A DNA stretch of 64,000 nucleotides from Candidatus Latescibacterota bacterium (lineage in GTDB: Bacteria > Latescibacterota > UBA2968 > UBA8231). Position 1 is the stretch's first letter. Every line of letters begins with the position of its first letter. Both the position numbers and the translations under genes were made by a program. Below the pieces are notes generated by a model. The model was not told the DNA's origin. It worked only from the letters and a program-made list of their open reading frames with translations, and made no database searches. Positions 38,412-48,693 of this stretch are shown one piece after another. The stretch spans positions 3,104,001 to 3,168,000 of the forward strand of contig OZ252098.1 in NCBI GenBank assembly GCA_965248355.1, given 5' to 3'.

Positions 38412-39425
38412 GTGAACGATACCCGGATCGAGGAGCTGCTCGACGCCGTGCCCGCCCTGGCGGTGCTGGCCGGGCTGCGCCTCGATCTGTTCAGCCACGT
38501 GGCCAGCACGCCGAGGACCGCCGCCGAGCTGGCCGGCCGGGTGGGGGGAGACGAGCGCCGCCTGGAGGCCCTCCTCCACGCGCTGGCCGCCCTCGACCTG
38601 CTCGAGGTGAGGACCGCCGCCGGCGGAGGGCCTCCGCGGTTCCTCTGCCGGCCGGCGGCGGCCCGCCGGCTGGTCTCCGGCGGCGAGGACTACGCCGGCC
38701 ACGGCAGCGAGCTGGCCGCCCGCCTGTGGACCGCCGGCCTCACCGTGGCCGATTCCATCCGAAGGGGCGCGGCCACGGCGCCCGGCACCGCCGGCGGGGA
38801 CTCCGACGAGGAGACCGGCGCATTCCTGCGGGCCCTGCATCCCGGGGCCGTCAGGACCGGCCGGGAGATGGCCCGCCGCGGCTGGTTCGCCGGCTGCCGC
38901 CGCATCGTCGACGCCGGCGGCGGCTCCGGCGGTGTGGCCGCGGCCCTGCACCGGGACCTGCCCGAAGTCGAGGTCTCCGTGGTCGAGCGCGAGTCGGCGG
39001 CTCCCTGGACGCGGCGCTTCCTCGAGGAGGAGGGCGCCTCGGCCGTCCGTGTGGTCGTGGGGGACTTGGTGGACGCCGGCGCCGGTCTGGAGGACCAGCT
39101 CGACCTGCCCTGCGACGGGGTGGTCTGCCTGTCCGTCTTGCAGGTCTTGGCACCGGAGGAAGCGGCGCGGGTAGTGGCCCGGATCGCCGGCTGGCTGCAG
39201 CCGGGAGGCCGTCTCGTGATCGCCGGCATGGGGGTGCTGGCCGACGACCGGCTCTCCCCCCGCGACTCGGCGGTCCACAACATCCTGCTCGGGGCCCTCT
39301 ACGAGAGCGGCCGCGGCTACACCCTCTCCGAGTACACGCGCTGGCTCGAGGCCGCCGGCTGCACCGCCGTCGAGTGGGACGAGCTGGCCGACGGCCGCGG
39401 CGCCATCCGCGCCGTCAGAACATGA
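38412..39425 (+). CDS. SAM-dependent O-methyltransferase (family 2, with dimerisation domain)
   Basis: LRLDLF dimerisation helix, VDAGGGSG motif I, LQPGGRLVI. Confidence 0.88.
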   Translation: MNDTRIEELLDAVPALAVLAGLRLDLFSHVASTPRTAAELAGRVGGDERRLEALLHALAALDLLEVRTAAGGGPPRFLCRPAAARRLVSGGEDYAGHGSELAARLWTAGLTVADSIRRGAATAPGTAGGDSDEETGAFLRALHPGAVRTGREMARRGWFAGCRRIVDAGGGSGGVAAALHRDLPEVEVSVVERESAAPWTRRFLEEEGASAVRVVVGDLVDAGAGLEDQLDLPCDGVVCLSVLQVLAPEEAARVVARIAGWLQPGGRLVIAGMGVLADDRLSPRDSAVHNILLGALYESGRGYTLSEYTRWLEAAGCTAVEWDELADGRGAIRAVRT

Positions 39426-40473
39426 AGCTGGTGTTGCGGTAGTCCTCGGGCAGGTCGGGGATGCCGTCGCCGAACCCGATCCGCCGACCCAGCTCGCAGC
39501 TGCGGTAGAAGGCCAGGCCCAGACCCACGTTCTCCAGGCCGTTGGGCCCCGAGTTCTCCGGCTCCTCCACCTCGCCGTGGACCGCGGCCAGCAGATCGGC
39601 CAGCTCCAGGACGTAGGCGTTCTCCCCGTCCTCGGGCGGCACCTCCTCGGGCTCGTCGGCGCCGGACCGGAAGAGCCGCACGGGCCCGCCCCAGACGTCG
39701 AACCGCAGCCCGCCCTCGGTGCCGCCGATCCAGTGCCCCCGCGCCGGCAGGCCCACGGTGGAGCCGGTGCGGGCCGTGACCAGCGCCCCCGACTCGAATC
39801 GCACCAGGCCGAGCACGATCTGCGGGCTCATCCAGTCGCCGTGGGGCTGGTTGCCGGCGATGTCGGCGCTCACCGCCGCCACGGGCCCGAAGACGGCGCG
39901 GGAGCAGTCCAGCTCGTGGATGAAGGACTCCAGCACCCGGCCCCCGGAGTCGGCGGGGCTCTCCCGCCAGTGCCCGGTCCGGGGGGCGGCCTCCTCGACG
40001 GAGCGCTTCGGGGACTTGCCCATGCGGTCGAAGCTGCCCGTCACGGGAGTGCCGATGGCGCCCTCGGCCACCAGGCGGCGGACGGTGCGGAAGGTGCCGA
40101 AGAAGCGGATCGTGTGGCCGATGGCCAGCTTCACGCCGGCCCGCTCGCAGGCCTCGGTCATGCGCCGGCAGGACCCCAGGTCCAGGGCCATGGGCTTCTC
40201 GCAGAGCACGTGCTTGCCGGCCTCCGCCGCGCGCGCCACCAGCTCCGGATGGCTCGGCGTGGGGGTGCCGATGACGACCACGTCCACGTCGGAAGCCAGC
40301 AGGTCCTCGAGGCGGGTCACGGCCCGCGCCCCGGCCTCCTCGGCGCGTGTCCGGGCCGCCTCCGGGTCCAGGTCGAAGGTGAGGGTCAGGTCGCAGTCCG
40401 GATGCTCGCCCACGGCCTTGACCCAGGCGCGGGCGATGTTGCCGCAGCCGATCAGCCCGATGCGGTGTCTCAT
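39415..40473 (-). CDS. Gfo/Idh/MocA oxidoreductase
   Basis: IGLIGCGNIA, GKHVLCEKPMA. Confidence 0.92.
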   Translation of the reverse strand: MRHRIGLIGCGNIARAWVKAVGEHPDCDLTLTFDLDPEAARTRAEEAGARAVTRLEDLLASDVDVVVIGTPTPSHPELVARAAEAGKHVLCEKPMALDLGSCRRMTEACERAGVKLAIGHTIRFFGTFRTVRRLVAEGAIGTPVTGSFDRMGKSPKRSVEEAAPRTGHWRESPADSGGRVLESFIHELDCSRAVFGPVAAVSADIAGNQPHGDWMSPQIVLGLVRFESGALVTARTGSTVGLPARGHWIGGTEGGLRFDVWGGPVRLFRSGADEPEEVPPEDGENAYVLELADLLAAVHGEVEEPENSGPNGLENVGLGLAFYRSCELGRRIGFGDGIPDLPEDYRNTSFMF

Positions 40474-40566
40474 CTGTGTGATCCCGTCGTGATTGACTAT
40501 CGTTGTCGCGTGGCGAACGAGTCTATCCCATACCCGCCGCCGGTTCCACCCCGCCGGTAGATCCCC

Positions 40567-42516
40567 GTGCCCTCCGACCTCGAAGAGGGCCTCGTCGAGG
40601 CCCAGGCCAACCTCGGGGAGGTCTTCGCCCGCTACGACGAAGCCGCCGTCGAGCTGATCCGAATCGCCCGCCTCGACGGCCACTTCGCCGGCCGCGCCGA
40701 GGCCGACCTGGAGTGGCCGGCCTACCGGCCCGATCAGGACCCTCCCATCGACCCGTCCGGCCTCGAGCGCCGCGCCGCCCTCATCGCCGAGATCTTCGCC
40801 GGCATCCCGCCGCGCCGCGAGCACCGGCTGTCCGACGCCTACGAGCGCTACCAGAAGGCGAGGCCGGCGTACCTGCGCAGCGTGCGCCGCTTCCTGCAGG
40901 TGCAGCGCCAGTTCGTCGTCCACGGCGCCGGGGACGAGCGCGACTTCGGGGAGCTGTACGGGGCCGTCTACATCGACGCCCTCGGCCGCGAGGACCCGGT
41001 CCCCCTCGACGAGGGCGAGGCCGCCCTGGTGGAGTTCAAGGTCGCCCGCGCCCCCCTGGCTCACGCCGCCGCCGTGGTGGAGAAGCTCCGCCCCGCCCCG
41101 GCCGCCGACGACCCCCGCTGGAACGCCGGCTACGAATGGGCGATCGACGGCGAGCGCGGCCAGGGCCCCCTGCGCGACCTGCTCACCGGGATCGCCGCCG
41201 ACGTGGTCGACTACCTGGCCGCCGGCGAGCACCTGGCGATCCGCTACAACACCTTCTCCAACTTCATCTGGTTCGGCATCTCCGTGTGGAAGACGGTCTC
41301 CGAGCTGGAGTTGCTCGCCGCTCGGCTGCGGGACCGGGCGCCGAAGCGCTGGCTCGACCGCCTGGAGCAGCATGTGCGCCTCGCCCAGGCCCTGCTGCTG
41401 CGCTTCCTCCAGGCCCACCTGGAGGACCCGGCGCAGATCCGTCCGAGGGACTATTGGTACGGCCAGCGCTACAGCTACCTCACCCGCGACATGATCGACC
41501 TGACCCGCGGCCTGGTGCGCAAGGCCGAGCGCCTGCGCGCCCGCCACGGCGCCGAGCTGCCCGCCGTGGGGCTGCCGCCCCTGCTGGACGGGACCTCCTC
41601 CGGACGGTGGCACGAGTACGGCCACGTGGGCCGCCAGGGAGAGTTCTCGCCCCTGGCGCGGGCCCGGCGCCTCGTGAAATGGGTGCGCCTCTTCCGCCGC
41701 ACGGCCCGCGAGAAGAAGCGCCTCGACCGCTCGAACCTCTCCGACGCCGAGCGCTACGCTGCCGCCTGGGAGGCCAACCTCGCCTGGGGCCGCGCGACCC
41801 TGGAGAACTTCGGGATCACGGTCTCGGTGATCATCGACCCCGACTTCGCCGACATGGCCCTCGAGCTCGACCTGAAGCCGAAGGGCCGCAAGGTCGTGTT
41901 CTTCCCCACCCACCAGACCCTGCTCGACCACCCGGTGATGTACCGGGCCCTGGAGTCGGAGGAGCTGCTGGCGGCCATGGGCTGGTCGGCGCCCGTGCCC
42001 TGCTGCCTGCTGTCGCGGGGCCGGCTGCTGTCGCAGACGGCGGTGAAGGTGGGGCGGCGGGGGTTCTCCCTCATCGGCGTGAGCCCCGCGGAGACCGACC
42101 GCCTCGCCGAGGAGGTGGACGGCTACGTGGTGCTCTCCCGGGACGAAGGAGGCTCGCCCACGAGGCGCTTCGCCCGCGTCATCGAGGACCGGCCCGGCGT
42201 CGTCTACGGCGGCGGCACGACCTCGGCCTTCGACCTGCAGGTGCTGCCCATGCAGCACGCCTTGTTCGCCCACCTGCCCCAGGACGTGGTCTTCGTGCCC
42301 GTCGCCTTCCGCGGCATCCACGCCCTGTGGCCGAAGTGCCCCCGGGGCAACGTCCAGCTGCGGCCCGGGCACGTGGAGGTCTACGTCTCCCCGCCGGTGC
42401 CCGGAGAGACGACGCTGCTGCCGCGCCGGCGCGCCCTGCGCACGCAGCTGGAGCCGGCCACCCTGTTCCAGGCGATCCACATCGCCACCCTGCTCGATCC
42501 CGGAGAGGAGGACTAG
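40567..42516 (+). CDS. Large protein: unknown helical N-terminus plus C-terminal PlsC-like acyltransferase domain
   Basis: FFPTHQTLLD (HxxxxD), VVYGGGT in place of FPEGT, FVPVAFRG. Confidence 0.7.
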   Translation: MPSDLEEGLVEAQANLGEVFARYDEAAVELIRIARLDGHFAGRAEADLEWPAYRPDQDPPIDPSGLERRAALIAEIFAGIPPRREHRLSDAYERYQKARPAYLRSVRRFLQVQRQFVVHGAGDERDFGELYGAVYIDALGREDPVPLDEGEAALVEFKVARAPLAHAAAVVEKLRPAPAADDPRWNAGYEWAIDGERGQGPLRDLLTGIAADVVDYLAAGEHLAIRYNTFSNFIWFGISVWKTVSELELLAARLRDRAPKRWLDRLEQHVRLAQALLLRFLQAHLEDPAQIRPRDYWYGQRYSYLTRDMIDLTRGLVRKAERLRARHGAELPAVGLPPLLDGTSSGRWHEYGHVGRQGEFSPLARARRLVKWVRLFRRTAREKKRLDRSNLSDAERYAAAWEANLAWGRATLENFGITVSVIIDPDFADMALELDLKPKGRKVVFFPTHQTLLDHPVMYRALESEELLAAMGWSAPVPCCLLSRGRLLSQTAVKVGRRGFSLIGVSPAETDRLAEEVDGYVVLSRDEGGSPTRRFARVIEDRPGVVYGGGTTSAFDLQVLPMQHALFAHLPQDVVFVPVAFRGIHALWPKCPRGNVQLRPGHVEVYVSPPVPGETTLLPRRRALRTQLEPATLFQAIHIATLLDPGEED

Positions 42517-42861
42517 ATGTCCCTCACCTTCTACCTGTGGCTGCACCTGGCGGGCCTGGGCCTGCTGCTGCTGGCCCTCGGCGGCATGGCCCGGCTCGCG
42601 GGGGAGCGGAACCGCATGCTGGCCGCGGCCCACGGCCTGGGCCTGCTCCTGTCCTTTGTCAGCGGTTTCGGCCTGCTGGCCAAGGCCGGGATCCCCTGGC
42701 CGTGGCCGGGGTGGGTCTTCGGCAAGATCCTGCTGTGGCTCGTGCTTGGAGCCGCCCCGGCCGTGATGCGGCGGATGCAGGGGCGGGCCGCGGCCCTCTT
42801 CTGGGGCCTCTGGGCGCTGTTCCTGCTGACCGCCTGGCTGGCCGTGCTCAAGCCCTTCTGA
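42517..42861 (+). CDS. Small 4-TM membrane protein
   Basis: Hydrophobic; WLH, AAHGLGL, KILLWL, LKPF; start abuts the upstream stop. Confidence 0.8.
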   Translation: MSLTFYLWLHLAGLGLLLLALGGMARLAGERNRMLAAAHGLGLLLSFVSGFGLLAKAGIPWPWPGWVFGKILLWLVLGAAPAVMRRMQGRAAALFWGLWALFLLTAWLAVLKPF

Positions 42862-42876
42862 GCGGGGGACCGCTCC

Positions 42877-43914
42877 TCACACGGGCAGCTCGACCCCGAA
42901 GCCGGGGCCGCCCGTCCAGCGCGCGCGGCCGTCGCGCAACTCCCGCCCGCCGACCCACTCCATCCACGGGCGCCCGCTCTCGGCCAGGGGCTCCGGGTCG
43001 AGGGCGGCGATGGCGTGCAGCCCCCAGACCTCGGAGCCGCGGTGCGGGCAGACGCGCACGCCGTGGTCCCGCGCCAGCCGGTAGATCTCCACGAGCTGGG
43101 TCAGCCCCCCGCACCAGCAGACGTCGGGCTGGTAGATCCGGTGGCAGCCGCGGTCCATCAACTCGGCGAAGGCGCGGGCCGTGAACTCGTGCTCGCCGCC
43201 GGCGATCGGCACCGGCGAGCGCTGAGCCAGCCAGGCGTAGCCGTCGAGATCGTCGGAGGGCAGCGGCTCCTCCAGCCACACCAGACCCAGATCGGCCACC
43301 TCCTCGCACAGGGCCAGCACGCGGGCGGGGTCGGTCCAGCCCATGCCCGCGTCGGCCATGAGCTGCACGCCGCCGCCGGCCCGCTCCCGGGCGCGCCTCA
43401 GGAGGTCGGCGGCGCCGTCGTCCGGGGAGCCTGGATCGTAGCGGCCCAGGCCGCCGAGCTTCACCGCGCCGAAGCCCGCGTCAAGAGCCTCGGTGATACC
43501 CTGCAGGCCGTCCGCCCCGTCGAGGCCGGTCGTGCTGTAGGCGGGGACCTCGGCGGCCGGGGACTCGGCCAGCAGGCCGGCCACCGGCTTTCCCGCGGCC
43601 TTGGCTCGCAGGTCCCACAGGGCGAGGTCGACGCCGCTGATGGCCATGAGGGCCAGGCCCTTGCGCCCGTAGGCCAGGGTCGCCCGGTACATGGCCTCCC
43701 AGAGGCCCTCCAGGTCACTCGCGTCGGCGCCGGTCAGCAGGGGCCGCAGCTCCCGCTCGATCACGTGGATCCCGGCCGCGCCTCCGGCGCCCATGCCGTA
43801 GCCTACCAAGCCGCCGGCCTCGACCGCCACCGACAGCTGTCCCAGAAAGCCGCGCCAGTCCCGGGGCGCGCTGTCCGCCTCCGGTTGCGCGGCGCGCACG
43901 TCCGTGATTTTCAT
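42877..43914 (-). CDS. Mandelate racemase/enolase-superfamily dehydratase
   Basis: SGVDLALWDL, LMADA, WLEEP, GGEHE, QPD, CPH. Confidence 0.9.
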   Translation of the reverse strand: MKITDVRAAQPEADSAPRDWRGFLGQLSVAVEAGGLVGYGMGAGGAAGIHVIERELRPLLTGADASDLEGLWEAMYRATLAYGRKGLALMAISGVDLALWDLRAKAAGKPVAGLLAESPAAEVPAYSTTGLDGADGLQGITEALDAGFGAVKLGGLGRYDPGSPDDGAADLLRRARERAGGGVQLMADAGMGWTDPARVLALCEEVADLGLVWLEEPLPSDDLDGYAWLAQRSPVPIAGGEHEFTARAFAELMDRGCHRIYQPDVCWCGGLTQLVEIYRLARDHGVRVCPHRGSEVWGLHAIAALDPEPLAESGRPWMEWVGGRELRDGRARWTGGPGFGVELPV

Positions 43915-43928
43915 CCCCTCTCCTTCCA

Positions 43929-44750
43929 ATGACGATCGACGTCCTACTCCTCGGCGGCCGGGGCAGGATCGGCTCCGGCCTGCGCATGTACCTGCCGCGC
44001 CTCGACCCCGCGTACCGGTTCACCTCCGTCGACCTGCCGGGGTGCGAGGACCAGGCCACGGAGCCGGTGCCCCAGCGCGACTTCGTCGGCCTCGACATCG
44101 CCGCCGAGCCCGGCCGCGTGCGCGAGCTGATGGCCGGCCGCGACCTGGTCGTCTACCTGGCGCGCCGGGGCTCCCTGGCCGAGATGAACGCCATGACCGA
44201 CCTCGTCTTCAAGGCGGTCCTGGCCCAGGAGCCGGTGCCCATGGTCATCGGCGCCAGCTCGGTCCACGCCTGCGACGGCGCCTACAGCGTCGACGAGGGC
44301 CCCTGGTCGATCTGGGCCGAGCGCCGCTTCGACGAGCTGGACCCGGCGCCGGAGCGCGTCTCGAGCCTCATCGAGGCCTGTCCCACCAACGACTACGGCC
44401 GCGAGAAGGCCCACGTGGAGCAATGGTGCGAACGGCTGGCCGCCCTCGGCCACGGCGCCGTGGCCGCCCGCTGGGGCGGCATCAACCCGGCCAACGCCAT
44501 GACCGCGGAGAAAGGCTACTTCGCTCTCTGGTGCCACCAGGAGGACGCGGCCCGGTTCGTCCATGCATGCTGCACGGCGCACCGCAACGGAACCCTGCGC
44601 AGCGGCGCCCACTACTTCGTGGTCTCGGACAACACCCGCAACATCTTCGACATCGACCTCGCCCGCCGCGAGATCGGCTATCGGCCCGTGCACGATGCCG
44701 AGCAATTCTACTCTACGCCGGGGGGTGAGGGGCGGAAACCGCCCCATTGA
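43929..44750 (+). CDS. NAD-dependent epimerase/dehydrogenase (extended SDR, uronate dehydrogenase-like)
   Basis: GGRGRIG, ASSVHA, YGREK (YxxxK), IGYRP. Confidence 0.85.
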   Translation: MTIDVLLLGGRGRIGSGLRMYLPRLDPAYRFTSVDLPGCEDQATEPVPQRDFVGLDIAAEPGRVRELMAGRDLVVYLARRGSLAEMNAMTDLVFKAVLAQEPVPMVIGASSVHACDGAYSVDEGPWSIWAERRFDELDPAPERVSSLIEACPTNDYGREKAHVEQWCERLAALGHGAVAARWGGINPANAMTAEKGYFALWCHQEDAARFVHACCTAHRNGTLRSGAHYFVVSDNTRNIFDIDLARREIGYRPVHDAEQFYSTPGGEGRKPPH

Positions 44751-44775
44751 CGATTTCGGGATCCCTCCTTATACT
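44747..44775 (+). promoter_or_regulatory. Sigma70 promoter
   Basis: TTGACG (44747-44752), 17-bp spacer, TATACT (44770-44775). Confidence 0.85.
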
Positions 44776-44785
44776 CTCAACTCTC

Positions 44786-44848
44786 ATGAACAACAATCCA
44801 ACCAAAACTGGCGATAATAATCCGCCCGACCTATTGCGCGTGTTCTGA
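44786..44848 (+). CDS. Putative Asn/Asp-rich attenuator leader peptide
   Basis: MNNNPTKTGDNNPPDLLRVF; 5 Asn and 2 Asp in 20 codons; lies between promoter and terminator. Confidence 0.75.
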   Translation: MNNNPTKTGDNNPPDLLRVF

Positions 44849-44880
44849 ACGACTGACTCCAACTGTATCCTTAGATCCAA

Positions 44881-44913
44881 CCCGTCGCGGGCACGCATCG
44901 CGGCGGGTTTTTT
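44881..44913 (+). terminator. Intrinsic terminator of the putative attenuator
   Basis: Stem CCCGTCGCG/CGCGGCGGG, 9-nt loop, then TTTTTT. Confidence 0.85.
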
Positions 44914-44928
44914 CATGCCTCATGGGGC

Positions 44929-45812
44929 GTGCCGAGCCGGCTCTACCCCGGCCGCTTCTACGCGCTGCCCCAGTCGCCGCAGCAGTTCAAGCAGCTGCTG
45001 ATGGTCTCCGGCTTCGATCGCTACTTCCAGATCGCCCCCTGCTTCCGCGACGAGGATGCCCGAGCCGACCGCTCTCCCGGGGAACACTACCAGTGCGATA
45101 TCGAGATGCCCTTCGTCGAGCAGGAGGACGTCTTCGCCGTCGTGGAGGAACTCTTCTCCGGTCTGTTTCACGAGTTCACCGACTGGCAAGTGAGCGGCCC
45201 TCCCTTTCCCCGTCTCTCCCACGCCGAGGCCATGCTGCGTTTCGGCACGGACAAGCCGGACCTGCGCTTCGGGCTGGAGATCCGGGACCTGTCCCACATT
45301 TTCGCAGGCTCCTCGTTCAGGCTGTTCCGGGAGATCGTCGCCGAAGGTGGGGTGGTCCGCGCATTGTGCGTTCCCAAACTCGAGGCCCAGCCGCGCTCGT
45401 TCTTCGACGGCCTCGGGGCGTTCGTGAAAGAATCGGGCGGCCAGGGGCTGGCCTGGCTCATCAACGGGGCCCAGGCCACAGGATCGATCGCCGCGGCCCT
45501 CGAACAGAGCACGATCAGCAGCATCACCGAGGCGTGCTCAGCCGATCCGGGGTCGGCGGTCCTCCTCATCGCCGGATCGCCGGGTGAGGCGGCGCACCTG
45601 GCGGGACGGTTGCGCCTGCCTCTTGCATGCCGCAGGGTGGGATGGATGCCCTGGAGAGGCGACCGCCGCTGGAGATCAAGGCGTATCAGTACGACATCGT
45701 CTGCAACGGCCTGGAGCTGTCGAGCGGCGCCATCCGCAACCACCGGCCGGACATCATTTACAAGGCCTTCGAGATCGCCGGGTACCCGCGCCGGGAGGTG
45801 GAGCGCCGGTTT
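44929..45812 (+). pseudogene. aspS: Aspartyl-tRNA synthetase remnant (5'-, internally and 3'-deleted)
   Basis: FYALPQSPQQFKQLLM, FQIAPCFRDEDARADRSPGE, RFGTDKPDLR; after a jump at ~45619, [20 protein letters not shown]. Confidence 0.92.
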
Positions 45813-47053
45813 GTGCCCGGGCTGCCGCTCTCGTTTCTCGACCACAACCTGGGTCGAGGAATTCACTACTGACACTCCCGAGGAACAGATTGTGCTTTCC
45901 TTCCTCGATGCTGATGCTCTGATCGGTAGAGCGGCAAAACCTCTGGCGAGGCTTGCCAATATCAACGATGCGTCGTTGCCGGATATCGAGGCCGCCCGCG
46001 AGGCGGCGCGAGAAGCCCGGGAGGCGATCCGCAGCACCGAAGTGCTTTGCGATCTGATCGCAGCACAGCCGCTTTCCGAAGACTCCAGGGTCACTCACTT
46101 CCCTTTCGAGGTCTGGAGGCAGCATCGGCAACCCGCCGTGGCAGGAAGCGACCATAGAGGAACATGCATTCTGGGCGCGTCACTTTCCGGGCCTGCGGGC
46201 TCTTTCCCAGCGCCAGCAGGAAGCGGAGAAAGCCAAGCGGCAGAAGGAGAGGCCCGACTTGGTGTCGCTCTATGAGAGCGAGGTAGCCGAGACCGAGAGG
46301 ATGCGCAAGGCACTGGTTGGTGGTGCCTTCCCCGGGATGGGAACTGGAGACCCCGATCTCTACAAGGCGTCTTGTTGGCGGTTCTGGAGGTTGACCGGCG
46401 AAGACGGCGGACGCATTGGCGTCGTGTTGCCACGTAGTGCGCTCGCAGCCAAGGGTACGACCGACTTCCGTCATACGGTATTCGGTGAATCGGAACAGGT
46501 CGAAGTCACCATGCTGCTCAACCGGGCGGGGTGGGTGTTTGACGAGGCGGAGCACCGCTACACTATAGGTCTCGAGCCGTCGGCTCGGCCCACGGGGGGT
46601 CTTCGACGCGGCGGCCATGGGTGGGGGCGGATCTCTCGGGGACAGTGCTGCAGCCAGACCGTGCGGCCGCAGACGCGGACGTCCCGCCAGCGCCGGGGCT
46701 TCATGGTCCGTACGATCTGGCCTCGCCGGCCACATTGCGGACATCGACACCCCGTCTTGTGCGGCTTCACGGCGACCACGAGGTCGCGTCCTCCCGGGCC
46801 TTCGAACCACGAGTCCGCCGCGCGGAACCCCTTGAATTTCAACAGCTTGGAGACTATCTTCCCTGCGGTCATAGGTCGGGTCTCCCTCTCTCCCGCCGGA
46901 GAGTGCTTGATGTGGTGGTAGCACCAAGCTCAGGAGTCGACCTATGACCTTGTCATGTACTCACGTTTCAGCGTTGAAGAATAAGGCTGGGACTACCAAG
47001 CGAGGCTGGACGGCGTGCGCAGCCATTTCCTGGCGTGGAGGAGTCGTCGATGA
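45813..47053 (+). pseudogene. Type IIG RM / N6-adenine methyltransferase remnants, interrupted by an ISL3 fragment
   Basis: [21 protein letters not shown] (motif IV, 46124-46147); GDPDLYK...GVVLPRS; C-terminal GWDYQARLDGVRSHFLAWRSRR whose stop overlaps the next ATG. Confidence 0.75.
46572..46949 (-). mobile_element. ISL3-family transposase 5' fragment
   Basis: MTAGKIVSKLLKFKGF...CRCPQCGR...RRWRD...then a frameshift to PTHGRRVEDPPWAEP (zf-ISL3 pattern). Confidence 0.75.
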
Positions 47054-48198
47054 CCCTGCGTGTCGATGTGAGACCGGAGCTGTTCCGCTGGGCGCGCGAG
47101 CGGGCGGGAGTCGAGCTGGAGGCATTGGTGAAGCGGTTTCCCAAGTACCGGGAGTGGGAGAGCGGGGAGAAACAGCCGACGTTCAAGCAACTTGAGCAGC
47201 TTGCCAACGTCACCCATGCTCCGGTCGGCTCCTTCTTCCTATCTCAGCCACTCCAGGAACCAGTCCCGATACCCGACCTGCGCACCGTCGGCAATCGCTT
47301 TGTCGGCCGACCCAGCGTCGACCTGCTGGACACCGTTTATCTGTGTCAGCAACGGCAGGACTGGTACCGCGAATACGCCCGCATGGAAGGCGAGGATCCG
47401 CTCCTCTTCGTCGGCGCCGCCACACCGGCGAGCGATGTCGAATCCACCGCATCGAGAATAAGAGCGGCTCTCGGCTTCGGCCTCGACGAACGCCGCACAC
47501 TGCGCACCTGGACCGATGCCCTGCGGGGCTTCATCGAGCAAGTCGACTCCCTCGGCGTCCTGGTGATGGTAAACGGCGTAGTCGGCAACAACACCCGCCG
47601 CAAGCTCGACCCGGAGGAGTTCCGAGGCTTTGCCCTCGCCGACGACCTCGCGCCCCTCATCTTCATCAACGGCGCCGACACCAAGGCAGCGCAGATGTTC
47701 ACCCTGGCGCACGAACTGGCCCACATCTGGCTCGGGGAATCGGCCCTGTCCGACGTCGAGCCGGCCTCGATACCCTCTCATCAAATAGAGATGTGGTGCA
47801 ACCGCGTGGCGGCGGAGCTCCTCGTTCCCCAAGGGACGCTACGTGAAGCCTATCGAGGGTGGGAGGACCTGGCGACCCAGCTAAGCCGCTTGGCCCGCCA
47901 TTTCAAGGTGAGCACCCTCGTCGTTCTTCGCCGCATCTTCGACATCGGCGCAATCGACCGCGGCGAGTTCGATCTGGCCTACCGGCGAGAGCTGGATCGC
48001 TTACTGTCCATGGCAACGGCAAGCGGCGGCAACTTCCATCCAACTCTGAAGACGCGGGTCGGACAGAGGTTCGGCCGCGCGCTGGTCGCCTGCACGTTGG
48101 GAGGCAGAACTTCGTTCTCCGAGTCCTTCCGCCTGCTCGGCATCAAGAAGCCAGCGACCCTGCGCGAGTTCGCGGCAAGCCTGGAAGTGGGTTCGTAG
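47050..48198 (+). CDS. XRE-HTH plus ImmA/IrrE metallopeptidase
   Basis: LFRWARERAG...WESGEKQPTFKQL; EFRGFAL; FTLAHELAHIW (HExxH); CNRVAAELL. Confidence 0.92.
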   Translation: MTLRVDVRPELFRWARERAGVELEALVKRFPKYREWESGEKQPTFKQLEQLANVTHAPVGSFFLSQPLQEPVPIPDLRTVGNRFVGRPSVDLLDTVYLCQQRQDWYREYARMEGEDPLLFVGAATPASDVESTASRIRAALGFGLDERRTLRTWTDALRGFIEQVDSLGVLVMVNGVVGNNTRRKLDPEEFRGFALADDLAPLIFINGADTKAAQMFTLAHELAHIWLGESALSDVEPASIPSHQIEMWCNRVAAELLVPQGTLREAYRGWEDLATQLSRLARHFKVSTLVVLRRIFDIGAIDRGEFDLAYRRELDRLLSMATASGGNFHPTLKTRVGQRFGRALVACTLGGRTSFSESFRLLGIKKPATLREFAASLEVGS

Positions 48199-48693
48199 AT
48201 GGCGTATCTCCTCGACGCCGATGTCTTCATACGCGCAAAGAACCTGCACTACGGCTTCGACTTCTGTCCCGGATTCTGGGAGTGGCTGATTCAGGCCAAC
48301 GCCCAGGGACGAGTCTTCAGCATTGAGAAGGTCGGGGACGAGATCAAGGCGGGAGACGACAAACTCGCCAAGTGGGGAAAGAAGCGCGGCGAGGGTTTCT
48401 TTCTCGCGCCAACGCCCGCGGTGCTCGAAGCACTTGGAAGAGTGGCGGATTGGGCGAACAGCCAGGACTACCAGCCTACGGCCATCGACACGTTCCTTCA
48501 GGTAGCCGACTACTACCTGATTGCCCACGCCCTGGCCTGCGGCTATGAGGTAGTTACCCACGAAATCCCATCCTCGTCCAGGAACAGGATCAAGATTCCC
48601 AACGTCTGCATCGGTCTTTTCGTCAAGTGTCTGACACCGTATGAGATGCTGCGCCGGGAACGGGTGCGGTTGGTATTGGGGGCCGCTGCATGA
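48199..48693 (+). CDS. DUF4411 PIN-domain protein
   Basis: YLLDADVFI, YGFDFCPGFWEWL, ADYYLIAHA, VVTHE, KIPNVC. Confidence 0.9.
   Translation: MAYLLDADVFIRAKNLHYGFDFCPGFWEWLIQANAQGRVFSIEKVGDEIKAGDDKLAKWGKKRGEGFFLAPTPAVLEALGRVADWANSQDYQPTAIDTFLQVADYYLIAHALACGYEVVTHEIPSSSRNRIKIPNVCIGLFVKCLTPYEMLRRERVRLVLGAAA

Follow-up and report, generated by a model that had tools for sequence, protein, structure and literature searches.

The subject of this analysis is a window of 64,000 nucleotides, positions 3,104,001 to 3,168,000 of the forward strand of contig OZ252098.1 in the assembly GCA_965248355.1 of a Candidatus Latescibacterota bacterium, and in particular a compact unit at 44747-44913 of this window. 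The unit consists of a promoter, an asparagine-rich leader open reading frame (ORF) and an intrinsic terminator, and stands immediately before what remains of a gene for aspartyl-tRNA synthetase (AspRS). Taken together, the evidence makes it very likely that it is a decayed ribosome-mediated (leader-peptide) attenuator, which in relatives of the organism controls an accessory AspRS gene, aspS2. An attenuator of this kind had been proposed in an earlier note made from the sequence alone, and the promoter, the 20-codon Asn-rich leader, the terminator, two alternative pairings and the start of the aspS homology that it described are all present where it placed them; the attenuation reading itself also stands, supported mainly by comparative evidence from the relatives. 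Below, G000 denotes the window's own genome (5.5 Mb), other G numbers denote genomes of the same family and L numbers denote loci.

The element and the aspS2 remnant in the window

The element begins with a sigma-70-type promoter (44747-44775, + strand) comprising the -35 hexamer TTGACG (44747-44752), a 17-nt spacer and the -10 hexamer TATACT (44770-44775), which agrees with the consensus at 10 of 12 positions. The consensus scan recovered no other promoter-like site in 43500-47000, where shuffled sequences predict 0.2, and the TTGAC of the -35 hexamer is unchanged throughout a six-sequence alignment (A1). A transcript from this promoter would start nearly at the leader AUG, the ATG of which (44787) lies 11 nt past the -10 hexamer and is not preceded by a Shine-Dalgarno sequence. 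The leader ORF (44787-44849, + strand) is a truncated version with 20 codons followed by TGA (44847-44849); it encodes the peptide MNNNPTKTGDNNPPDLLRVF, with Asn codons at 44790-44798 and 44817-44822 and Asp codons at 44814-44816 and 44829-44831. In relatives the leaders have 21-30 codons, and it is to their 3' two-thirds that the window leader aligns, the relatives having ACG in place of its ATG; the 5' part, which carries the first of the pairing segments, region 1 (CGTCAGAA), is absent here.

Region 2 (44838-44853, + strand), which can pair with either region 1 or region 3, comprises the last leader codons, the stop codon and the 4 nt that follow (GCGTGTTCTGAACGAC), and contains one A more than its counterparts in relatives (TGAACGAC as against TGACGAC). 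Region 3 (44883-44896, + strand; CGTCGCGGGCACGC) forms the inner half of the 5' arm of the terminator together with its loop, and reads GGGCAC in place of the GAACAC of relatives, whereby two pairs become G-U. The terminator (44879-44913, + strand) is a 12-pair stem-loop (44879-44909) with a T6 run at 44908-44913. Of the pairings described earlier, the first joins GCGTGTTC (44838-44845) with GGGCACGC (44889-44896) in 8 pairs, two of them G-U; the predicted antiterminator at the 3' end of the leader is longer than had been thought and also takes up the middle of the 5' arm of the terminator. The second, between AATCCGCC (44819-44826) and GGCGGGTT (44902-44909) in the 3' arm, is likewise present, but it overlaps the Asn codons, so that a stalled ribosome would mask it, and could be relevant only in other states.

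The patch has a G+C content of about 51% within a region of 65-77%. Across the whole of G000, seven short frames contain a run of at least three Asn/Asp (N/D) codons that includes at least three Asn, and of these only the window leader precedes a T-run. The element occurs as a single full copy in G000, with only terminator-like matches of 18-20 nt elsewhere, on which ground a repeat or the end of a mobile element was rejected. A tRNA or transfer-messenger RNA remnant was likewise rejected as the source of the AT-rich patch, there being no tRNA gene in the window.

The aspS2 homology begins at 44928, 15 nt past the T-run of the terminator, and stops at 45813. Its first fragment (44928-45626, + strand) corresponds to approximately codons 180-412 of the intact gene and is 89% identical at the DNA level to aspS2 of G006; read in the frame from 44929 it contains the motif 2 region of the catalytic core and the GAD domain (Pfam tRNA-synt_2 and GAD), and it matches positions 179-413 of TIGR00459 with 215.8 bits, under the cut-off. 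The second fragment (45626-45813, + strand), in another frame, is 94% identical to G006 and covers positions 216-264 of tRNA-synt_2. BLAST comparison with the G006 locus shows that 570 bp, namely the 5' untranslated region and about 180 codons, are gone between the terminator and the first fragment, in agreement with the earlier view that this aspS lacks its N-terminal region. A further stretch of about 117 bp is gone between the two fragments, where the frame changes, as are the last ~215 bp at the 3' end. The regulated gene had been taken for aspS; it is an aspS gene, but the accessory paralogue aspS2 and not the housekeeping gene, which is represented in G000 by an intact aspS1 (C1:994243-995982, 723 bits to TIGR00459) that is 48% identical to the remnant. 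To judge from the sequence, the switch in the window is left without a gene to control and is a fossil beside a dead gene; the biology of interest lies in the relatives. A fragment of an ISL3-family transposase (Zn_ribbon_ISL3; 46561-46872, - strand) is found about 750 bp downstream of the remnant, and possibly brought about the deletion in which aspS2 lost its 3' end.

Although aspS2 is dead, the promoter is still close to consensus, the frame of 20 codons open and the terminator intact, which could be taken to mean that the promoter-to-terminator unit is a gene in its own right, specifying a small RNA or a small protein, and that its place before aspS2 is incidental. Comparable cases are known in Sinorhizobium, namely the attenuator RNA rnTrpL and the leader peptide peTrpL, with functions in trans. 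Such an explanation is very improbable here, given that the relic of the element (44790-44919) has only 83% identity in BLAST to the leader 3' part and terminator of G006, as against 89-94% for the dead aspS2 and 90% for the syntenic upstream gene, an epimerase-family member (Pfam; 43930-44738). This lower conservation of the relic than of its flanks suggests relaxed constraint and, together with the loss of the 5' part, looks like neutral decay. Furthermore, nothing but the N run, a terminator and their place before aspS2 unites three unrelated leaders, the residues that link the run to region 2 are freely variable, and the unit is present in a single copy per genome. In G006 (locus L044, 10750-11485) an inserted HEPN/nucleotidyltransferase pair (Pfam) separates the syntenic epimerase gene from the promoter of aspS2; the window is without this pair.

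Distribution of the element and diversity of its leaders

A DNA search matched the element in 5 of 40 relatives, and a covariance model (R1), built from six sequences, matches 33 of 76 family genomes, including G000. Among the 30 loci that were fetched, the N-rich ORF ends at a conserved place in 29, being interrupted in L039, and the element is followed by the start of aspS (MH.YRTHTCGEL...) in 28, the exceptions being the window and a locus at a contig end. The leaders of these relatives are longer than that of the window, as exemplified by MIMMTRQNACTHNNPANPGDNNPPAPLRVF, and are succeeded by the terminator and then by ATG CAC CGC TAT CGC..., which encodes MHRYRTHTCGELR, the N-terminus of AspRS. 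The earlier note had held that its reading would fall if relatives with an intact aspS were without such an ORF; in those that were checked, aspS is directly preceded by a conserved ORF rich in N/D codons, together with a terminator and alternative pairings.

The intact gene behind the element is always aspS2, a second, bacterial-type accessory copy that shows about 43-48% identity to aspS1. A census with TIGR00459 recovered one high-scoring aspS1 in all 76 genomes and a full-length aspS2 (577-625 bits) in 32, with one further copy carrying a TAG codon; fragments in six genomes (G000, G021, G013, G072, G009 and G023) suggest that the gene was lost repeatedly. Outside the window, the partial or broken copies are situated at G021:C25:7352-8566, G013:C474, G072:C1:4024651-4025205, G009:C2:14963-15550 and G023:C1:750277-750642. 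That of G021 is N-truncated near the same point as the window copy (profile position 177 versus 179), which may reflect either independent decay or a shared breakpoint. The family as a whole thus presents a natural decay series of intact genes, a gene with a stop codon, an N-truncated version and fragments. In the one context that was read (G006), aspS2 is monocistronic and unlinked to gatCAB.

Across 168 genomes of the phylum, proteins with at least 61% identity to AspRS2 are found only in this family, the remainder being 42-46% identical. The other relatives with at least 70% identity in a species-representative collection (L050-L056) all possess an upstream N-run ORF and a T-run (7 of 7). 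More distant aspS loci, with at most 62% identity, were also scanned (63 loci; 10 of the 80 fetched were omitted as too short): 59 of the 63 are without an N/D run in any upstream frame, and the remaining four (L076, L083, L084 and L129) hold such a run somewhere upstream.

At least three types of leader can be recognized, namely type 1 (...QNNNNPLAPLRVF), type 2 (...SHNNDDNNPAIRARWRWP), which constitutes a second unit in 17 of the 30 loci, and type 3 (...ANNNQDHNRTSTGGTAPAG) of the genus g13, which occurs free or as the C-terminal tail of lysyl-tRNA synthetase (LysRS). Divergent forms are found in L040, L041 and L056, the last of these, (V)INQVISTLNNNTANGDANRNAHLSVP, being unrelated in sequence outside region 2. 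All that the types share is an Asn(/Asp) run, a stop shortly before or inside the segment that pairs with the terminator, and aspS2 downstream, with the runs taking the forms NNNN, NNN, DNN, NNDDNN and NNNQGNNN. The second unit sits between the first terminator and aspS2, the NNNN leader being first and the NNDDNN leader second, and is composed of AGGAG, 7-8 nt upstream of an ATG, a peptide such as MTFQHKHTARAFSHNNDDNNPAIRARWRWP and a terminator of its own (CCCGCCGT...ACGGCGGG-T5); AGGAG or GGAGG precedes the ATG of both leader 2 and aspS2. This second complete attenuator in series is seen in L025 (G073) at ~1650-1835 and in 16 further loci, is missing in some species of the same genus (L021, L022, L026, L029, L031 and L033), and appears to come and go as a module. 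Type 3 is present in G088 as a free 24-codon leader, MTQIRANNNQDHNRTSTGGTAPAG, after asd. In L047 (460-2064; G089) and L048 (247-1875; G087), LysRS is extended at its C-terminus by 45 residues that include the tract DNNGDNNNQGNNN, and this tail (...VDNNGDNNNQGNNNRTSAGGTATAG) runs straight into the terminator, followed by aspS2. The LysRS of L047 is full-length, with TIGR00499 matching residues 14-489 of 534, and in G089 and G087 the sensing ribosomes would be those finishing lysS.

Asn accounts for 21.7% of the codons of 28 first leaders and 14.4% of those of 16 second leaders, against a background of 1.6% across the coding sequences of 29 aspS2 genes and 2.1% across 949 long ORFs of G000. The share of AAT among the Asn codons is 0.60 and 0.43 in the two leaders, compared with 0.30 in aspS2 and 0.09 genome-wide in G000, where it is the rarer codon. 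Asp shows no overall enrichment (4.5% in leader 1 versus 5.4-5.9%) and is confined to the N/D runs, so that of the Asn/Asp sensing proposed earlier it is mainly the Asn part that holds. Insertions and deletions among leaders measure 21, 24 or 27 nt and preserve the frame. The six-codon run of type 2, represented by 12 unique sequences, displays only N-D, AAT-AAC and GAT-GAC exchanges, bar two Ser codons in one sequence. Between the run and region 2 the leaders read variously PLAP, PLVP, PLLP, PLTP or PPAP. These patterns suggest that the codons themselves are under selection and that the leaders would be translated.

The same patterns bear on the alternative of a ribosome-independent switch, in which either a protein (AspRS on a tRNA-like fold, as with threonyl-tRNA synthetase) or an uncharged tRNA (in the manner of a T-box) would be the effector and the A-rich tract would serve as an RNA motif. 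T-boxes or autoregulation are frequent for aminoacyl-tRNA synthetase genes, and an Asn T-box precedes the clostridial aspS2-gatCAB-asnB operon, as in Clostridium acetobutylicum. The present element would resemble the latter in coupling the expression of a second AspRS for tRNA-dependent Asn synthesis to the charging of tRNA-Asn; however, the C. acetobutylicum regulator is a tRNA-binding riboswitch, whereas the present one would be read by the ribosome, and aspS2 of G006 is not linked to gatCAB. Here the tract is always in frame with the start codon and the stop in region 2, its other two frames read Ile codons or TAA stops, and it changes only by AAT-AAC and N-D exchanges and frame-preserving indels. 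An Rfam scan of the window with E-values up to 10 found no family over the element, T-box (RF00230) included, and neither did a scan of five relatives' loci (L012, L025, L017, L056 and L047) with E-values up to 1; weak matches (D12-methyl, snoRNA-like and RT-7) lie elsewhere and far under their gathering scores. A switch that dispenses with the ribosome is accordingly an extremely improbable explanation.

Alternative RNA structures and the position of the ribosome

Region 2 overlaps the leader stop codon and has two possible partners, region 1 and the segment formed by the terminator's 5' arm and loop, giving the 1:2 / 2:3 / 3:4 arrangement typical of attenuators. RNAalifold on six sequences predicts helix 1:2 (CGUCAGAA...CACGC with GCGUG-UUCUGACG) together with the terminator; this helix has 13 pairs, which are 89-92% paired, while the window copy is without region 1 through the deletion of its 5' part. 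In an alignment of 31 sequences (A4), columns 113-126, which correspond to region 2, are the best-conserved part of the leader. The terminated structure in A4 has 24 pairs, with 94.7% of 720 cells paired and three pairs changed on both sides, as against 22-62% in slid controls; the terminator helix 3 contributes 11 of these pairs, with 99.1% of cells paired, two pairs changed on both sides and a T-run after it. The antiterminator joins GCGUGUUC-U-GACG with CGUC-GCG-AACACGC (CGUC / GAACACGC) in 12 pairs, of which 96.0% of 371 cells are paired across the 31 sequences, compared with 10-54% in slid controls. Two of its pairs show compensatory changes and three cells show double changes, the compensatory cases including G017 (leader GCGUGCUC, loop GAGCAUGC) and G079. 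The antiterminator is the minimum-free-energy fold once region 1 is masked, and occupies the inner 5' arm and nearly the entire loop of the terminator; the two structures are predicted not to coexist because one nucleotide would need to span an 8-pair helix. As sequence variation is small, these changes support both structures short of proof. The tandem leader of G073 folds better than shuffled sequence (z = -2.1), 3 of 100 shuffles being equally good.

Given these alternatives, we propose that the leader of 21-30 codons, with its Asn run (NNNN, NNN or DNN), would report on the supply of charged tRNA. When Asn-tRNA(Asn) is ample, the ribosome would reach the stop codon and cover region 2, the terminator would form and aspS2 would be off. 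Termination would also follow in an untranslated leader, in which region 2 is kept paired by region 1. A shortage of Asn-tRNA(Asn), or in the second leader also of Asp-tRNA(Asp), would make the ribosome stall on the N/D run, and region 1 would be occupied or parted from region 2, leaving the latter to pair with region 3; this 2:3 pairing would keep the terminator open and let RNA polymerase enter aspS2. In many relatives, a second attenuator (NNDDNN) that depends on a Shine-Dalgarno sequence would act in series with the first.

The dependence of the terminator on ribosome position was modelled as P(terminator), the terminator probability obtained when the fold is restricted to the RNA downstream of a ribosome footprint made up of the A-site codon and 12 nt. 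Masking of the footprint with pairs allowed across the ribosome was rejected, as helix 1:2 then closes around the ribosome, which was judged sterically unrealistic. The model is one of equilibrium in which kinetics is ignored, and its summary profiles cover loci L012-L038, with L040 and L041 profiled separately. For leader 2, P(terminator) falls to at most 0.04 somewhere in the run and is at least 0.96 at the stop codon in all 15 loci. For leader 1, 16 of 27 loci have values under 0.5 within the run and all 27 reach at least 0.97 at the stop, and the free RNA prefers the terminator (at least 0.87) in 39 of 42 units. Individual profiles are as follows: in leader 2 of G073, P(terminator) is 0.00 over codons 4-20 and 0.84-1.00 from codon 21, the switch coming after the last codon of the run (N20); in G006 it is 0.00-0.48 over codons 3-21, save for 0.98 at codon 6, and 0.99 from N22; and in L056 it is 0.01-0.05 over codons 5-18 and 0.99 from N21. 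In the window relic, folding with the ribosome in place, as suggested earlier, yields values of 0.05-0.07 at codons 6-7, but the minimum in the longest run is 0.74.

Several observations weigh against the attenuator. The 133-nt element of the window folds with z = -1.0, with 41 of 200 shuffles equally good, and the case therefore cannot rest on the window copy; it is by its context in G000 and its conservation in relatives that the element stands out from chance. The covariation is thin, given how closely related the sequences are: 6 of 500 shuffles attain the antiterminator score, and each structure has three double-change cells. Leader 1 has no Shine-Dalgarno sequence, its ATG lying 8-11 nt past the -10 hexamer, and its translation hence depends on the assumed (near-)leaderless start. 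Eleven of the 27 first leaders, including those of the window, G048, G047 and G067, have no predicted antitermination, and in the three type-3 leaders P(terminator) never drops below 0.79 (0 of 3 fit). These misses of the equilibrium model are real; the model is, at the same time, on the conservative side, as it lets the full terminator compete in every case.

Asparagine supply and the possible role of AspRS2

The amino acid that would be sensed, Asn, differs from the Asp that the enzyme attaches, and such regulation is sensible only if the enzyme feeds the route in which AspRS and GatCAB together form Asn-tRNA(Asn). Most likely, the extra AspRS would raise the level of Asp-tRNA(Asn) available to GatCAB, and a feedback loop would ensue in which more AspRS2 gives more Asp-tRNA(Asn), from which GatCAB makes more Asn-tRNA(Asn). 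Among the 76 family genomes, asnS is above the cut-off in 66, gatB in 73 and the asnB family in 36, and asnA in none; glnS is present in all five genomes checked. Of the two features that the earlier note put up for checking, absence of asnS and presence of gatCAB, only the latter holds. The asnB family is found in 7 of the 32 genomes with a full-length aspS2 as against 29 of the 44 others. G000 possesses gatB, asnS and glnS but neither an intact aspS2 nor asnA nor any match to the asnB family at E<=1e-40, which would imply either a non-discriminating AspRS1 or dependence on external asparagine. Its tRNA-Asn(GTT) has a U1-A72 pair and its tRNA-Asp a G1-C72 pair (ARAGORN).

According to PMC4206432, U1-A72 of tRNA-Asn is required for the GatCAB route, and the combination of asparaginyl- and glutaminyl-tRNA synthetases (AsnRS and GlnRS) with GatCAB marks tRNA-dependent asparagine synthesis, as in Deinococcus, Thermus and Bdellovibrio, which are without AsnA or AsnB, have tRNA-Asn with U1-A72 and, in two cases, have a second AspRS. 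The genomes studied here resemble Deinococcus radiodurans and Thermus thermophilus in the whole signature, second AspRS included, and Bdellovibrio, which has a lone non-discriminating AspRS, in AsnRS, GlnRS, GatCAB and U1-A72. They differ from Deinococcus and Thermus in that the second AspRS of these is archaeal-type whereas AspRS2 is bacterial-type with a GAD domain, and in that many family members keep GatB without aspS2. The presence of AsnRS, GlnRS, GatB and U1-A72, along with the absence of asnA and, in most aspS2 carriers, of asnB, suggests that aspS2 plausibly feeds tRNA-dependent Asn synthesis, for which AspRS2 would have to charge tRNA-Asn. The nearest relatives of AspRS2 outside the family include Alphaproteobacteria, and the control Caulobacter has gatB without asnS and glnS; this kinship is suggestive only with regard to the aspartylation of tRNA-Asn by AspRS2.

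On the whole, we regard it as more probable than otherwise that the family runs its asparagine supply through an undescribed class of Asn-codon attenuator acting on an accessory, horizontally acquired AspRS. Three points weigh against a part of AspRS2 in Asn supply. AspRS1 and AspRS2 are not told apart by their scores against discriminating (1EFW and 1C0A) and non-discriminating (4WJ3 and 4RMF) AspRS of solved structure. The anticorrelation of aspS2 and asnB is a tendency among related genomes and not strict. Finally, genomes that have no aspS2, including G000, retain gatB, suggesting that AspRS1 may already serve the pathway; AspRS1 may then be non-discriminating and aspS2 an inducible booster.

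The last point also favours a different purpose for the same attenuator, namely that aspS2 is an inhibitor-resistant or back-up AspRS, induced when AspRS1 is poisoned, for instance by microcin C-type compounds that mimic aspartyl-adenylate, or is overloaded. If AspRS1 already supplies Asp-tRNA(Asn), as the retention of gatB suggests, its loss would lower both Asp- and Asn-tRNA. The gene is, moreover, accessory and patchy, being present in ~33 of 76 genomes with fragments in six more and limited to one family of the phylum; its nearest outside relatives are 52-62% identical and belong to other phyla, which suggests horizontal acquisition, and there are neighbours of a mobile or defence type, such as the HEPN/nucleotidyltransferase pair in G006 and the ISL3 remnant and DUF4411/IrrE genes in the window. 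The model for this explanation is the indolmycin-resistant tryptophanyl-tRNA synthetase (TrpRS) of Streptomyces under a Trp leader: the auxiliary antibiotic-resistant TrpRS of Streptomyces coelicolor was reportedly found by Vecchione and Sello in 2010 to be under a Trp-codon attenuator. That TrpRS and AspRS2 are alike in being patchy accessory second synthetases induced by stalling at codons when charged tRNA falls; in the present case, however, it is mainly Asn that is sensed, and there is no evidence of an inhibitor or of resistance. The regulatory codons are overwhelmingly Asn, whereas Asp codons would report the inhibition of AspRS most directly; the asnB family is missing in 25 of the 32 aspS2 carriers versus 15 of the 44 others, which fits a function in Asn supply; and there are no microcin-like or adenylyltransferase genes beside aspS2 in the one context read. 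A back-up function is therefore unlikely. The possibility that the leader itself is a microcin-C-like precursor was rejected, as judged by the features of MccA: the peptides lack a C-terminal Asn and, in that context, have no neighbouring adenylyltransferase gene.

Leader-peptide attenuation is textbook knowledge for Trp, His, Leu, Thr, Ile/Val and Phe, and in Escherichia coli pheST is controlled in this manner through the pheM leader. We know of no leader-peptide attenuators described in the host phylum. A search limited to a collection of open full-text articles found no Asn leader peptide and no attenuation of aspS or gatCAB. Leader-peptide attenuators precede trpS2 and leuS of Streptomyces (PMC1262725) and hisS paralogues of Bacillus (PMC2965389). 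The element shares with pheST, trpS2, leuS and hisS a short ORF rich in particular codons, an intrinsic terminator and exclusive 1:2 / 2:3 / 3:4 pairings, and as in the classical cases the regulated gene encodes an aminoacyl-tRNA synthetase, often a second copy. In those cases the codons are cognate to the enzyme; here, Asn (plus Asp) codons precede a gene for AspRS, the proposed signal being the product of AspRS and GatCAB, and the first leader is apparently (near-)leaderless, with often two attenuators in series. The proposed mechanism is classical attenuation, the specificity and the target being new. The leaderless first sensor, the second Shine-Dalgarno-dependent N/D sensor and the LysRS-fused tract in one genus would all go beyond the textbook design.

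Two serial short ORFs, each with alternative stem-loops, are also seen in the mgtCBR leader of Salmonella (mgtM and mgtP), as described in PMC3641672; there the ORFs respond to different signals (ATP or Mg2+, and proline) with Rho-dependent or other termination logic, whereas here Asn/Asp-tRNA is the proposed signal for both units, and an intrinsic terminator belongs to each. The present family would offer further instances of attenuators in tandem, and instances of a full-length gene whose end carries a sensor tract. Asn codons before an AspRS gene would provide sequence-level evidence as to which AspRS copy serves tRNA-dependent Asn synthesis, and the element could be used in this way in uncultured bacteria, with the N-run leader and terminator as a cheap genomic marker of this synthesis.

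Elsewhere in the window, a gene for an IrrE/ImmA-type Peptidase_M78 protein (387 aa) and one for a DUF4411 protein (164 aa) occupy 47035-48690 (+ strand), with the stop of one abutting the start of the other, and may form a defence- or toxin-antitoxin-like pair. The region 39415-43184 contains very long ORFs that overlap on both strands (1072, 893 and 649 aa), most of which are probably not genes, as is typical of DNA with ~75% G+C.

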